This document shows, in pieces, positions 12,945 through 43,167 of a stretch of DNA of 64,000 nucleotides. A program made the translations under genes and the position numbers. The DNA is taken from the NCBI GenBank assembly GCA_000004695.1, contig CM000153.2:5120001-5184000 (forward strand), written 5' to 3'. The notes below the pieces were generated by a model. It worked only from the letters and a program-made list of their open reading frames with translations. It was not told the origin of the DNA and did not search any database. Numbering within the stretch: the first letter of the stretch is position 1; each line of letters starts with the position of its first letter. The DNA comes from Dictyostelium discoideum. Taxonomy: Eukaryota.

Positions 12945-14730
12945 TTAATTAATTTGAGTATTAACTAAACCACCAGCAACACCATCAACAAAATTATCCA
13001 AAAACTTTTTAGTGATTCTAGTATAATTTGTAACTTGTTCTTTCCATTTTATAAATGCTTGATAATCTTCCAATTTATCTAAACTTTGTTCATATTGAGT
13101 TGATAAAAGATTGGTATGTTTTTCGAGATCTTCTTGAAGGTATTCGAAAAGATTACGTTCTTGAGATTTTTTATCCAAATAGTAACCATAGACATAGGAG
13201 TATTGTAATACACGACGATTCTTTAATAACTGTTCAGTTGCCTCCATAAGGAATTTGGTATCAGCCGATCTAACATCGAATTTACTTAAGATTTGTTGTT
13301 CCTTAAGATGTGCGTTCCTTCTTTGTTCATCGGCGATCTTCATAGCGTTTCTATGTGATTCATATCTGTGGTAGTAAAACATATATGCCTCTAATTCAGT
13401 TTTAGCATCATGTGCTTTATCATCATCTTCTTTGGCTTTTGATTTATCATATTTGTTACAATTGTAATAACCACCAGTGGTTGAACCATGTTCAGTCCAT
13501 GGACCACGACATAGCCAACAAAATTCAAATCCACAACCACCTGCATTCTTTCTACATGTCATATGCATACAACCACCTTAATTTTATAATAATAAAAATA
13601 AAAAAATAATGAAAATTAGTATAAATAAATTTTTTTAAAAAAAAAAAAAAAAAAAAAAGTTATAATTTACTTACCATTCTTTTCAATTGGACTACGACAT
13701 TCTGGACATTTTTTAGTATTTGCTAACATCCAAGTTACATTTTCAGATTCATCAGAAGCTTTTTGAAGCCATTTGTCAACTTGACTACATGGACATGGCA
13801 TATGATCACCAATTTCATAATCATTACAATTGAAACAATATTGGAAACCACATTTACAATTAACTGCTTCTTTACGTTCTTTACGATCGCATCTAATAGA
13901 ATATATACAACCAGGAGCTGGACACCATTTAACTTGTGGATTATCATCTACATATGATTTCAAAATAAAGTTATTGAAACGTTCAAACACTTCTGGTGAT
14001 ACAATTTGTTTGAATGCATCTTGATGTACGATTACTTTACATTTTGGTGCTGGACATGGTGTATAAATACATTCAGGTCCTTCACTAACTTTTATCTCTA
14101 AATAGTTTTTATAACATGGTAAACAATAACGATGATTACAAATTAATGCAAATGTTTGTGTTGGTGGGTAATCTTCTAAACAAATTAAACATGAAACATT
14201 TCCACTCTTTTCTACAATTGTTGCATTTAATTTCATAACATTTGGTACACCTGCATCTATACATAATTTCTCTGGATTTTCCATATATCTTTCAATTAAT
14301 TTTTCTTTATTCCATCTATAAAAATAAAACAATAATAATAAAAATAAAAAAAAAATAAAAAAAAAAAAAAAAAAAAAAGGTTAGAATTTATAAATTATTT
14401 AAAAAAAAAAAACTTTTAAAAATAAAAAATTAAAACTTACTTCATATGTCTTAATAAAGTTGAAACAGCAGCTTCAGATGGAATACTTAAAACATCTTTA
14501 ACTTCTTTTATAATTTTATGAGATTCTGAGAAAAGATCATCTTTATTTAAAACTTCAAAACTCTTTTGTCTTGTTAATTTACCTAGAGATCTTTGTGGTT
14601 GGTTTTCATCAAAATCAAACTCTTGGGTTGCTGCATCATCATATTCTGTATCATCTAATGATTCGTTTCCTGACTCTTCGGCTGAATCATCATCTACATC
14701 ATAATCTTCATACATTTCATCGTCTGTCAT
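12945..14730 (-). CDS. Ariadne-type RBR (RING1-IBR-RING2) E3 ubiquitin-protein ligase; exons 14730-14441, 14315-13675, 13576-12945
   Basis: Three minus-strand ORF fragments join through two introns (GTAAGT donors on the minus strand at 14440 and 13674; AG acceptors before 14315 and 13576). Phases are consistent (2, 1, 0). The protein has an acidic N-terminus, then WNKEKLIERY, then C3HC4 RING1 (CLICLEDY...CNHRYCLPC), then IBR (CPAPGC...CKCGFQYCFNC), then RING2 ([34 protein letters not shown]), then a C-terminal Ariadne domain. It may be the D. discoideum rbrA family. Confidence 0.85.
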
Positions 14731-14989
14731 TGCGGTTGAATTATTTAGTTTTTGTTTTTTATTTTTACGTTCTTGTGATGAATTTGGTTGTTGTTGTTGT
14801 TCAGAATCACTAAAATTGCTTAGTTGTTTGTGTGAATCTGTGTTGTTATTACTAATATTTTCTGCTTTTACTGTTGCTGCAGTTTTGGTTGTTGTTGTTG
14901 TTGTTATTCTTTTTTAATTTTTTTTTACCAAACCAACAATTATTATGTGTGATTAGGTATATTATATATTTTGTTAAAATATATATATG

Positions 14990-15055
14990 GGTGTATAAGT
15001 GTGCGTTTGTGTTGTGTTGTGTGTGTATGTATGTATGTATGTGTGTGAGTAAATA
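14990..15055. repeat. (GT)n/(ATGT)n microsatellite
   Basis: The sequence reads tgtgcgtttgtgttgtgttgtgtgtgtatgtatgtatgtatgtgtgtgag. Confidence 0.8.
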
Positions 15056-15284
15056 TATATAAATAATAATTATAAAAATAAAAAAAGAAAAAAAAAGTTG
15101 ATGTGTGATATAATATTAAATATATTTTATAAAATATGGTGTTTTTTTTTTTTTTTTATTATTATTATTTTATTTTTTATTTATTTTTTTTTTTTTTTTT
15201 TTATTTTTTTACTTTTTTTTATTTATTTTTATTTATTTATTTATTTTTTTATGTACAAAAAGAAATAATTGTGGTGTGTTTTAA

Positions 15285-15315
<31 letters not shown>

Positions 15316-20536: not shown

Positions 20537-21493
20537 ATGAATAAATTAATTTCATTCTTATTAGTATCATTATTTTTAGTTGCTGTAGCTTCTGCTCAAA
20601 CCAGCTACCCAAATCTCCCAACTGAATTCACTGCCGATGTTGAAATTCAAGTTGAAACCTCTCAATCACCATTCCCAATGCCATCAATCAGTGGTACTAT
20701 GTATTATGCTTACCAAAAGAGAGTCCAAAGAATGGATTCAACCGATCCAATGTTTGGTCAAACCGTTACTACCCTCGACCGTTATGATCAAATGAACGAA
20801 TATAACTTTGCTTCTGGTGATTGCAAATGTTCACCAATCTCTGGTGATATGCCACTCTATACCGTCTTACCAGGTAGCACTTATCAAGGTCAATCAAATG
20901 TCAATGGTGTTGAAAGTGACCAATGGATGTTCTCTTTATCACCATCTGTCAACATTTCACTCTTTGTTGACCCAACTCGTGAAATTTTAACTCAAGCTGT
21001 TATGCTTGTCAGCCAACAAGGTACCACTATGACCACCACCATCACCTTCTCAAATGTTAACACCAACTCAATCTCTGATGATATCTTTGAAGTCCCAGCA
21101 TACTGTCAATGCCCAACCCCAGCCCCACCAGTTATCCCACCAGCTAATGCTTGTCCAGGTAACCCACCATCTGGTTGTAATTGTGCACCAGCCTTAAGCT
21201 TCTGTTCTGAAGTTAACTATCCAATCGATTCATCTGATGCTCCATCAGTCGATGCTATGATCGAACAAACTTTCAATAACTTTGTTTCATTCGCTCAACC
21301 AACTGCTGCTTGTGCTTCAAACATGAAAAGCTTTTTATGTGCAACTTTATTCCCCCTCTGTACTGGTTCAATTATCCCAGTTTTACCATGTGCTAACCTT
21401 TGCCCAAGCTGTAGCTGTGGTGCTGGTAACAATACCTGTGCTGCTGCTTTACCAAATACCGTCTGTACTCAATATGGTAATGGTTTCTGTTAA
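20537..21493 (+). CDS. Secreted protein with a C-terminal Frizzled-type cysteine-rich domain (FZ-CRD)
   Basis: N-terminal signal peptide (MNKLISFLLVSLFLVAVASA). The C-terminal roughly 120 aa have FZ-like cysteine spacing (FCSEVNYPID...MIEQTFNNFVSF...FLCATLFPLC...PCANLCPSC). No transmembrane segment. Intronless, 318 aa. Confidence 0.65.
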   Translation: MNKLISFLLVSLFLVAVASAQTSYPNLPTEFTADVEIQVETSQSPFPMPSISGTMYYAYQKRVQRMDSTDPMFGQTVTTLDRYDQMNEYNFASGDCKCSPISGDMPLYTVLPGSTYQGQSNVNGVESDQWMFSLSPSVNISLFVDPTREILTQAVMLVSQQGTTMTTTITFSNVNTNSISDDIFEVPAYCQCPTPAPPVIPPANACPGNPPSGCNCAPALSFCSEVNYPIDSSDAPSVDAMIEQTFNNFVSFAQPTAACASNMKSFLCATLFPLCTGSIIPVLPCANLCPSCSCGAGNNTCAAALPNTVCTQYGNGFC

Positions 21494-22081: not shown

Positions 22082-22278
22082 TTAATGTAAACCAATTGGT
22101 TTATATTGACTATCTCTTTTAATTTTTCTTGCAATTAAAACAACAACAACTGATATTATAATAACAGCACCAATAACACCAAGAGAGATTCCAATTTTTT
22201 CAGCTTTTGTTAAAACATGTGGAGAATTTCCTTTTGAGGTTGGTTGACTGGTTGAACTTGAACATTGAACATTTTCAA

Positions 22279-22309
<31 letters not shown>

Positions 22310-23794
22310 GTTGATATTAAATTTGATATTACATGAATTCTTATCAGAAAGGCAATTGATACCATAATTATTATAATCACTTGTTTTTTGAACATTTAAA
22401 AAAACAGTTGAATTTATAGTTATGTTTGAAGAACCACAAAATATATTTGAACCATTACCATTTATTAGTGGTGAACCATCAATTTTATTATCAATAAATT
22501 TAACATTATTAATAGAAATAGTGCAATTTAAATTATAAATTGAACCACCTAAACCATTTTTAGCAAAATTTTCATTAAAAATTGTATTGGAAATGGTTAA
22601 ATAATTACTACTTTGATTTGTACCACATTGATCTATATAAATTGCACCACCATTTTGAGCATGATTATTTGTAAAAGTACAATTGTTGATAGTTGCTTGG
22701 TTATTCAATAGTGTGATTGCACCACCAACATTATTAATGTAGTTATTAATATTGTTATTTTCAAATGAACATGAATCAATTACTGATTGACCTCCATTCT
22801 TTAGTAAAATAGGTAAAGTGTTTAAAGTATTAACAAAGTTACAAGATGAAAATGAACTCGTTGCACTTGAGTCACCAGATATTTGAATGACAATTCCACC
22901 ATATGTATCAGTGACATTAACATTACTAAATTTGAAAACTGGTATACTTGGAGTAGTTGTAGAAGTATTGTTGTTATTATTGGTTTTAATTAGATAAATT
23001 GAATTATTTGAACTACCACCAGTAATAATTGTATTGGAAATTGACAAGAAACCATTATTGATCATTAATATACTACCAATATCATTGGAAACAAAATTTA
23101 AAATATTTGAATCTTCAATTGTAAAAATAATTGGTATGCCATCACTATAAATAATACCACCAACTGCATTCACAAGTTTAGTGTTGTTAAATGTTGATTG
23201 AATGATTGAAACGGTACTATTTTTAGTTGATGAAGGTGAAGGTAATGGTAAATTATTTTTTAAAAATGCAAAAGTTCCACCTACATGATAAGCAGCGTTT
23301 CTGTAAAATGAGCATTTTGTAACTGATAAATTTATTAAACTTGAACCATTCACTAATACAACAGATCCATCAGATAAACCATTCTTAAATGTTATACCAT
23401 AAAAAGTAATATTATTTACATCTAGATTACTCTTTATTTGAATATTTATAAATGGGTCTATTAATTCTGTTAAATCTAAAAATACATTTGGTGCAATAAT
23501 ATCTGGTGAGGCTGAATTTATTATTGAAATGGTTTTATTTGTAATTTCACCAAATGTTGTTTTTTCAACATTATAATACCCTGGACTGATTGTCATTAAC
23601 ATTTCAGAGAATTGGCCACAATTTGAAATTGACTGTGAAATTGTTGAACAAGGATTATCTGATGTTCCACAATCATTTGAATCTGAATTTGAATCTGAAT
23701 TAACAAAAGTATTACAAACCTGACAATTTACAAAGCCAATTAAAAAATTTATAATAATAATTAAAAAAAACAATAAGTAATTGTTTTTCTTCAT
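22082..23794 (-). CDS. Type I membrane protein with a parallel beta-helix ectodomain carrying Chlamydia PMP-like repeats (GGAI/GGSI and FxxN motifs)
   Basis: Signal peptide (MKKNNYLLFFLIIIINFLIGFVNC). Repeated motifs: GGAITLLNNQATINNCTFTNN, NGGAIYIDQ, GLGGSIYNLN. A poly-Asn run is present. A C-terminal TM helix (ISLGVIGAVIIISVVVVLIA) is followed by a short basic tail. Confidence 0.7.
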
Positions 23795-24134: not shown

Positions 24135-25250
24135 TTATGCATAGTTGACTGTAGAAGTAATTAATTCATTTGTTAAAAATGTTGCATAGGAAAAAGGAAA
24201 GCTCTTATATAATTTTCTATATCCTTGAGTTTTTACTAAATTAGTTGCTATTGAGATTGGATTAGTTGACAATAAATTAACAGAATTACCAAGATAACGT
24301 TGAACGAATAAAAAAGACAATTGACAAAGAACTGTTTCGCATGGAACGATAGCCAACGTTCTTAAAAAGGTTTTAGCGTATATTGATTTAATTATGAGTG
24401 TTGAATTTCTCCAAAATGTTGATTTTGGATTCTCTAATGATTTAGATTCGACATATTCAATTAATATATTATGTAATTTATTTACAATACCCTTTATAAG
24501 TCTACCTGTAGTATGCATCGCAACTGATGAAATAAAAGCGTAGGCTTCATTTTTAAAATTTAATTTTCCAGTTACCCCATCTTGACAAAGTACAACTTTT
24601 TTAATTAATTCCAAAAATGATAGTTTGTTGGCAGTTTGTATATAACATTCAAGTGAGAATGCAACAAATGATGTATAACACCATAGAATTTCATCCATTA
24701 ATTTACCCATTGTTGAGGATGGATAGATTAATTCATCCTTTAATTTAAAAAGTGGTCGTAGTAAGGAAGGAGCAAAGGTTTGTGCTAAAATGATTTTACC
24801 TAATGAAAATGCATTATTATTTCTATTGAATGATTGAAGAACTCCAAGTGAGTTAGAATAACTTGGAGTTGTATTTATAACAAATGAAGCTATTTTAAAT
24901 CTTGCTGCTAAAATTCCCATAATTGAGAGTAGGGTATGATTTTTTTGATTTAATGATTTAAAGTATTCAAGTTCAAAGGTGACCATCTCATCATGTATTT
25001 CTCTATCATAATAATCCCTTAACCTTTTATCTGAAATTACTGAATAGGCCGCATCGAAACTCTCTGTTTTTTGTTTATCATTTTCGAAATTACTTCAAAC
25101 TTTTTTATTTAAATGAGCAATTTTATCGATAGTATCTTCTTTTTTAACTCCTAAAAATCTATAAAGTTCACCACAATGACATTCATGTGTTGCATAAAAT
25201 ATTTTTACTTTATCTTCTTCAGTAATTGGAAAAATTTGTGTATCTTTCAT
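24135..25250 (-). pseudogene. Paralog 1 of the J-like/tripartite-repeat family, carrying an in-frame TGA (25095-25097); it is either a pseudogene or a base-call error
   Basis: The minus-strand reading frame from the ATG at 25250 reads MKDTQIFPITEEDKVKIFYATHECHCGELYRFLGVKKEDTIDKIAHLNKKV, then TGA, then SNFENDK...MVTFELEY... It is collinear and in frame with paralogs 2 and 3 over its whole length. ORF 24135..24986 is only the part downstream of the stop. Confidence 0.55.

Positions 25251-38044: not shown

Positions 38045-43167
<5,123 letters not shown>

Follow-up and report, generated by a model that had tools for sequence, protein, structure and literature searches.

The minus strand of the window analyzed here, a continuous stretch of 64,000 nucleotides of Dictyostelium discoideum DNA, carries a gene whose product combines GGAI/GGSI and FxxN repeats of the bacterial PMP (Pmp) type with a hydrophobic segment at either end. 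This raises the question of what kind of protein such repeats form in an amoeba, and how the gene is related to a second gene beginning at position 38045. In a sequence-only reading of the window the two genes had been taken as a locally expanded family of PMP-repeat membrane proteins, possibly of horizontal origin and later domesticated with eukaryotic signal peptides, introns and poly-Asn tracts. The gene in question is the following:

22082..23794, minus strand: complete single-exon CDS of DDB_G0286973, 570 codons plus the stop codon at 22082-22084, taken from the open reading frame list

The product is identical (100%, full length) to the D. discoideum AX4 "hypothetical protein DDB_G0286973" (NCBI/UniRef), which bears the UniRef name "Right handed beta helix", and the CDS translates to the same protein in a D. 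discoideum chromosome-scale assembly. Since the annotated protein equals the single open reading frame, DDB_G0286973 is a single-exon gene that had already been catalogued. Thus, among the eukaryotic features ascribed to it, the signal peptide and the poly-Asn tracts are present, but the introns are not. Its base composition (G+C 0.253, GC3 0.117) is native, with a G+C content of about 22% across the whole 64-kb window. A syntenic orthologue flanked by the same MFS, 368/374/369-aa and 318-aa neighbour genes is present in D. cf. discoideum. DDB_G0286973 is under ordinary purifying selection, with a dN/dS of 0.20 against this orthologue as compared to 0.18 for the adjacent 318-aa gene. A literature search for DDB_G0286973 returned nothing, neither experiments nor expression. 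It is an ordinary, catalogued but unstudied D. discoideum gene.

Kyte-Doolittle analysis of the 570-aa protein detected two hydrophobic segments only, at residues 3-31 and 531-560. Together with the family alignment and the structural model described below, they delimit the following features:

23723..23794, minus strand: signal peptide, residues 1-24 (MKKNNYLLFFLIIIINFLIGFVNC), placed by the Kyte-Doolittle peak at residues 3-31, with a presumed cleavage site
22214..22315, minus strand: poly-Asn tract and Ser/Thr/Pro-rich juxtamembrane stalk, residues 494-527, with pLDDT <50 at 496-506 and 512-527
22130..22195, minus strand: single transmembrane (TM) helix, residues 534-555 (IGISLGVIGAVIIISVVVVLIA), with a Kyte-Doolittle maximum of 3.12 and a modelled helix at 530-563
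22085..22129, minus strand: charged cytoplasmic tail of 15 aa, RKIKRDSQYKPIGLH, residues 556-570, read from the sequence
22094-22105, minus strand: YxxPhi motif YKPI, residues 564-567, from the family alignment

Because a single C-terminal TM segment is followed by a charged tail of 15 residues, the protein has a type I topology and no GPI anchor. The earlier description as a type I membrane protein with one C-terminal TM helix was therefore correct. In the alignment of the ten family members the N-terminal hydrophobic segment is present in 10/10 sequences and the TM segment (core I534-A555) is kept in all of them; the poly-Asn tracts are species-specific insertions. The YxxPhi motif is located eight residues past the membrane and three residues from the C-terminus. 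The consensus of the tail is RKIKRxxxYKPIG, with Y564 invariant and I or V at the +3 position in all ten proteins.

This family was defined here by its common layout of signal peptide, Cys N-cap, beta-helix, Cys C-cap, TM segment and an RK-rich tail with a YxxPhi motif. Besides the 570-aa protein it comprises nine full-length relatives of 516-610 aa, which were found by phmmer only in dictyostelids. They are one protein each from D. cf. discoideum (91% identity), D. citrinum (38%), other D. discoideum strains (609 aa, 39%) and Polysphondylium violaceum (30%), two from D. firmibasis (41% and 34%) and three from D. purpureum (34%, 34% and 31%), of which two lie on one 151-kb scaffold. The alignment of the ten sequences has 23 invariant columns, among them C27, C42, C49, C453, C481, C488 and Y564, and structural F, N and G columns are conserved as well. 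The copies in D. firmibasis, in D. citrinum and the 609-aa copy of D. discoideum are located in unrelated gene contexts and are therefore dispersed paralogues. The 41% match of D. firmibasis was also considered as a fast-evolving orthologue; this was rejected, as its locus is not syntenic, and it is a paralogue or a relocated copy. The 1068-aa gene adjoining the D. firmibasis copy is unrelated to either window gene (E>1).

A more distant protein, DFA_00226 of Cavenderia fasciculata (676 aa), has signal peptide, PMP helix, Cys cap and TM segment in the same layout. As compared to the 570-aa protein it contains more canonical rungs and ends in a different tail without YxxPhi. Since it is shared with Cavenderia, the architecture is older than the split of distant dictyostelid groups, and since the Cavenderia tail lacks it, the YxxPhi motif is not universal.

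The repeats themselves were analyzed by motif counts and by a hidden Markov model (HMM) of the repeat unit. The peptide GGAITLLNNQATINNCTFTNNHAQNGGAIYIDQ, quoted earlier as evidence for the repeats, is indeed found in the 570-aa protein (residues 357-389, window 22628-22726), with GGAI/GGSI and FxxN pairs beyond those of shuffled sequences. It is part of this feature:

22502..22768, minus strand: three canonical PMP-type rungs, residues 343-431 (FENN..GGAI, FTNN..GGAI, FNEN..GGSI), from motif counts and the unit HMM

The strict motif GG[AGS][IVLF] occurs three times (at 357, 382 and 416), whereas shuffled sequences contain it 0.20 times on average (P=0.0015). Each GG motif is followed by [FLI]xxN after 6-24 residues, and three such pairs were found in 0/2000 composition-preserving shuffles. 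The gaps from GG to the next FxxN are 13, 20 and 13 residues and thus fall within the motif spacing of 12-23 residues in chlamydial Pmps (PMC11166332). The three canonical rungs served to build a unit HMM, which scored them at 21.4, 27.6 and 23.0 bits and no further rung of the protein above 1.5 bits, so that 3 of about 12 rungs are canonical. The degenerate rungs keep just the GG or the F/N position; G172/G173, G212 and G299/G300 are conserved or nearly conserved across the family.

Direct assignment to the Pfam family Chlam_PMP (PF02415/IPR003368), to which the sequence-only reading had pointed, narrowly failed at the curated threshold. The 570-aa protein itself scores 19.3 bits where the gathering cut-off requires 20.6 (E=0.0012, best stretch 371-387), PF02415 is found at E<=0.01 in only 2/10 family members, and an NCBIfam scan of the 570-aa protein returned nothing. 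The PF02415 model is known to miss about one third of Chlamydia's own Pmps (PMC11166332). On the other hand, a profile of the ten dictyostelid proteins gave 213 matches at E<=1e-5 with a best E of 1e-63, nearly all of which carry precomputed PF02415 and many also PF13229. The named ones include Methanobrevibacter, Methanosphaera, Planctomycetota and an alphaproteobacterial autotransporter. With the single protein, phmmer against 1.84 billion representatives gave 1275 matches at E<=1e-3; outside the dictyostelids, every match falls on residues ~310-470 and aligns there in several stretches, which is typical of repeat proteins. Because PF02415 stays below its gathering score and NCBIfam is empty, membership in the PMP-repeat group is based on the profile search. 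Overall, the 570-aa protein genuinely belongs to the PMP-repeat beta-helix superfamily, but in a degenerate form.

To describe the fold, AlphaFold2 models were calculated. The first one, from a 10-sequence alignment, reached a pLDDT of 56.7, and a Foldseek search of the PDB with it gave weak matches only (E>2e-3). It was superseded by a second model from a 24-sequence alignment of dictyostelid relatives and prokaryotic matches, for which pLDDT was 80.8 and pTM 0.79. In this model most of the protein is taken up by one predicted domain:

22310..23719, minus strand: extracellular right-handed parallel beta-helix, residues 26-495, about 12-14 rungs, from the AlphaFold2 model

The modelled helix has three strands per rung and Cys-containing caps at both ends (N-cap C27, C42, C49, C59; C-cap C453, C481, C488). 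Residues 496-527 appear as a disordered stalk and 530-563 as a helix. The ectodomain contains 16 N-x-S/T sequons. According to the model, it is a beta-helix in which the repeats form the rungs.

These results bear on the idea that DDB_G0286973 might be a decaying or non-functional gene with PMP-like motifs arisen by compositional chance in an Asn/Ile-rich proteome. Such a view could draw on the sub-threshold Pfam score, on an Asn content of 16.8% of residues together with the poly-N tracts, and on the empty literature. It is contradicted by the intact reading frame, the dN/dS of 0.20 against the syntenic orthologue, the motif-pair count seen in 0/2000 composition-preserving shuffles, the confident beta-helix model and the strong profile matches to PF02415 proteins. 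We regard it as effectively refuted.

The domain content of the protein differs from that of bacterial Pmps. Chlamydial Pmps (PF02415 + PF07548 + PF03797) share with it the paired FxxN/GGA[ILV] motifs, the spacing of 12-23 residues and the right-handed beta-helix rungs. However, the Dictyostelium protein has no middle domain and no barrel, only three canonical rungs, and a eukaryotic signal peptide and TM anchor. Neither PF07548 (Pmp middle domain) nor PF03797 (autotransporter beta-barrel) was detected in it at E<=10. Because both are absent, the protein is, judged by its domain content, not a Pmp autotransporter.

A comparable layout is that of the trichomonad Pmp-like proteins (TvPmp; Handrich et al. 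2019, PMC6701047), for which a role in adherence was proposed. Going by the published description of that family, TvPmps likewise have N-terminal FxxN/GGA[ILV] beta-helix repeats, while the middle and autotransporter domains of the bacterial proteins have given way to one C-terminal TM domain with a short tail that contains endocytic motifs (PMC6701047). In contrast to the Dictyostelium protein with its clear signal peptide, TvPmps have no detectable one, and they carry a conserved ATPITK motif before the TM domain and, in their tails, NPx[YF] and acidic-cluster motifs instead of YxxPhi; ATPITK is absent from the DDB_G0286973 stalk (CSSSTSQPTSKGNSPHVLTKAEK).

The best non-dictyostelid matches are the adhesin-like "Ig-like domain repeat" proteins of Methanobrevibacter and Methanosphaera, with 34-40% identity over residues ~310-470, a value possibly inflated by AT-rich composition. 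These have been reported as Pmp-motif beta-helices (PMC10715098). They differ from the 570-aa protein in being archaeal, 1000-4800 aa long and equipped with many more rungs and with Ig-like domains, and have no N-cap, C-cap, TM segment or tail in common with it.

Structural comparison of the modelled helix gave an autotransporter passenger as the best match. The passenger beta-helix of Bordetella Vag8, a bacterial outer-membrane autotransporter, has 9% identity to the 570-aa protein and another motif content. Most of the solved structural neighbours are polysaccharide lyases, hydrolases or epimerases. This opens the main alternative, a membrane-anchored pectin-lyase-like carbohydrate-active enzyme of one of these three types, whose substrate would be either the capsule or exopolysaccharide of bacteria in the phagosome or the extracellular matrix of Dictyostelium itself. 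The identity to every enzyme among the structural matches is only 8-15%, however, and no CAZy-type Pfam family was matched. D107 is the sole invariant charged residue across the ten members, and no conserved catalytic constellation of Asp, Glu, His, Lys or Arg was seen in their alignment. Furthermore, by sequence the protein is closest to adhesin-like proteins with PMP repeats and not to enzymes. Taken together, we consider an enzyme of this kind unlikely.

Three points make a non-enzymatic binding module the better explanation of the ectodomain: its nearest relatives by sequence are adhesin-like, by structure it is matched best by an autotransporter passenger, and D107 is the only invariant charged residue. 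YxxPhi is an established tyrosine sorting signal, and the tail of DDB_G0286973 resembles tyrosine signals of the LAMP type. In Dictyostelium a GYQAI tail motif has been noted in LmpA (PMC2148220). By analogy, the YxxPhi tail suggests adaptor-dependent endocytosis or endolysosomal/phagosomal delivery. We therefore favour, with some reservation, the view that the protein is a non-enzymatic surface adhesin or receptor with a beta-helix ectodomain that is endocytosed via its YxxPhi tail, with glycosylation, the role of the motif, the binding function and its ligand all being putative parts of this proposal.

The DDB_G0286973 protein is one of a small family of dictyostelid type I membrane proteins, presumably glycosylated and about 520-610 aa in length. 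Once its signal peptide is removed, it would display a rigid, presumably N-glycosylated and disulfide-capped right-handed beta-helix. In this helix, FxxN and GG[AS]I motifs that point inward would stabilise the rungs, a device also used by chlamydial Pmp passengers, Methanobrevibacter adhesin-like proteins and Trichomonas Pmps. Where a bacterial autotransporter has its barrel, the Dictyostelium protein has a flexible Ser/Thr stalk followed by one TM helix and a short cytoplasmic tail. The invariant YxxPhi motif would direct clathrin-adaptor-mediated endocytosis or endolysosomal (phagosomal) sorting, and the ectodomain might bind a particle, glycan or substrate ligand while the protein cycles through the endocytic pathway.

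Several observations run against an adhesin. The fold neighbours are mostly enzymes, so that an enzymatic role is compatible with the fold; the PF02415 score lies just under the gathering score; and the Cavenderia relative has no YxxPhi tail. The ligand of the DDB_G0286973 protein cannot be named from sequence conservation alone.

Next, the relation to the second gene of the window was assessed.

38045..43167, plus strand: the 38045 gene, two exons (38045-41135 and 41216-43167), 1680 aa, with intron boundaries read from the sequence

Its intron comprises 80 nt (GTAAAT...AATAG). The product has a signal peptide, a poly-Asn tract of 44 residues, a long Asn-rich ectodomain and a Cys-rich segment with a weak Ephrin_rec_like match (E 0.05); in the region of residues 1283-1668, hydropathy of the spliced translation indicates about seven hydrophobic segments that resemble TM helices. 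The two genes had been said to carry the same repeats. This could not be confirmed: in the 38045 open reading frame the strict GG[AGS][IVLF] motif is found zero times, FxxN occurs 13 times against 16.7 expected and hence without excess, and a Pfam scan returned no match at E<=1. One or two degenerate PMP-like units are present, LFTNNSNSFNGG at 957-968 (6.7 bits) and FQLNSASIGG at 986-995. A PMP-rich profile gives 19.1 bits at residues 807-1038 of the 1680-aa protein, a score reached by 0/300 global or local shuffles.

According to the wider proposal, a bacterial PMP gene acquired by horizontal transfer would have expanded locally into both genes and undergone domestication afterwards. In its favour, both ectodomains exceed shuffled sequences against the PMP-rich profile, the taxon-labelled non-dictyostelid matches are archaeal or bacterial (most matches being unlabelled), and the two D. 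purpureum members on one 151-kb scaffold indicate that local duplication does occur in the family. The direct comparison of the two proteins argues against it. BLASTP yields a single 54-aa match with E=0.007, hhalign of the family profile with the 38045 protein gives a probability of 12.6%, and tblastn of all ten family members against the window matched one locus only, 22085-23731, and nothing at 38045-43167. The architectures differ (570 aa with one TM segment as compared to 1680 aa with about seven TM-like segments), unrelated genes stand between the two loci, which are ~14 kb apart, and the true paralogues occupy other loci in unrelated contexts (D. firmibasis, D. citrinum, other D. discoideum strains). 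Furthermore, DDB_G0286973 has a native GC3 (0.117), its type I architecture is already found in Cavenderia, and the likeness to Methanobrevibacter may be compositional (AT-rich, Asn/Ile-rich). Thus, this scenario appears very unlikely. DDB_G0286973 is not a recent duplicate of the 38045 gene and there is no local expansion; the architectures of the two differ, and any kinship between them within one superfamily would be very remote.

The presence of another PMP-like gene nearby is itself unremarkable, because Dictyostelium 7TM receptors with PMP-like N-termini, GrlP, GrlQ and GrlR, were already reported in 2007 (PMC1885808), which also speaks against the combined expansion and transfer scenario. 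Like the 570-aa protein, these D. discoideum family 3 GPCRs have a PMP-homologous extracellular region and a membrane anchor (PMC1885808). They differ from it as 7TM receptors of 1095-1604 aa encoded on chromosome 5 and, compared by description only, are closer to the 38045 gene.

As to the origin of the DDB_G0286973 family itself, the few taxon-labelled non-dictyostelid matches of the 570-aa protein are archaeal or bacterial, most matches being unlabelled metagenomic sequences. A pattern scan of prokaryotic genomes with residues 340-437 retrieved only four Methanobrevibacter MAG loci with 37-40% identity. This similarity is confined to the repeats and may reflect a shared AT-rich, Asn/Ile-rich composition. 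The Pmp motif has already been recorded in bacteria, archaea and Trichomonas, and phylogeny is impeded by the restriction of identity to the repeats (PMC10715098, PMC6701047). A horizontal origin of the family is possible; a phylogeny-based decision on it is precluded because the similarity is repeat-only. Any horizontal transfer would have to be ancient, because the architecture is shared with Cavenderia. One scenario of this kind is the ancient transfer of a prokaryotic PMP-type adhesin passenger that then gained, by fusion, a signal peptide, a TM helix and a YxxPhi tail of eukaryotic type and now serves as a phagocytic or adhesion receptor carrying bound bacterial or substrate glycans into the endolysosomal pathway. 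We consider it quite improbable; if true, the protein and the Pmp adhesins of Trichomonas would be a case of convergence.

Overall, the significance of our work presented here is mainly one of annotation, PMP-like ectodomains having been known in Dictyostelium since 2007. A "hypothetical protein" becomes a predicted type I surface glycoprotein with a PMP-repeat beta-helix and a conserved tyrosine motif that may act in sorting. Dictyostelids are thereby, after the trichomonads, the second eukaryotic lineage with PMP-type helices anchored by a C-terminal TM helix. A small dictyostelid family is thus defined, and its members are candidate receptors for adhesion or phagocytosis in a model organism that is readily accessible to experiment.

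The following features were noted around DDB_G0286973, the PMP-like gene, and, for one paralogue, in another assembly (window coordinates unless stated otherwise; lengths of the tandem paralogues are those of the genes at its locus, L001, in a chromosome-scale D. discoideum assembly):

20537-21493, plus strand, gene for a 318-aa secreted protein
22210-22395, minus strand, 61-aa ORF, out of frame within the PMP-like CDS
about 24135-25250, minus strand, tandem paralogue 1, 358 aa
25533-26657, minus strand, tandem paralogue 2, 374 aa
28727-29869, minus strand, tandem paralogue 3, 380 aa
38045-41135 and 41216-43167, plus strand, two-exon gene, 1680-aa product
L008 (assembly GCA_054859385.1 of a D. 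discoideum strain), 13717-15293, 609-aa paralogue P0013 of the PMP-like protein

The chromosome-scale assembly, GCA_054883475.1, encodes a protein identical to the PMP-like gene product. Over the 21.7-kb locus, base-for-base identity with the window fails, and the far end is offset by 23 bp. Therefore, indels exist between the assemblies, presumably in simple-sequence intergenic DNA. The nested ORF is the poly-AAT region read as an Ile-rich peptide and is almost certainly spurious.

P0013 was found in non-AX4 D. discoideum assemblies only. It adjoins an aspartic protease/gag gene of retroelement type, and two beta-lactamase-family genes lie downstream.

The gene for the 318-aa protein has a conserved counterpart at the syntenic position in D. 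cf. discoideum, with 93% identity and a dN/dS of 0.18. The G+C content of the window gene (0.406; GC3 0.288) is unusually high for the D. discoideum genome. The C-terminal half of the protein is Cys-rich, with a sub-threshold match to the Frizzled (Fz) domain (E 0.0017, 19.4 bits versus a cut-off of 32.1).

The gene at 38045 had been paired with the PMP-like gene as a local family in the sequence-only reading. Its product contains a signal peptide, a poly-Asn run of 44 residues, a Cys-rich module with a weak Ephrin_rec_like match, about seven hydrophobic segments and a long ectodomain that is rich in Asn and beta-helix-like. This layout is similar to that of GrlP/Q/R, the 7TM receptors with PMP-like N-termini; 7TM Pfam families gave no match.

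The real local tandem expansion of the window is the trio of paralogues directly upstream of the PMP-like gene, which share 49-63% pairwise identity. No Pfam family is on record for them, and their N-terminus (YRFLGVKKEDTIDKIAHTYKEIKSNF) looks J-domain-like. Comparison of the 374-aa copy with D. cf. discoideum (dN/dS 0.52) shows that constraint on this copy is relaxed.
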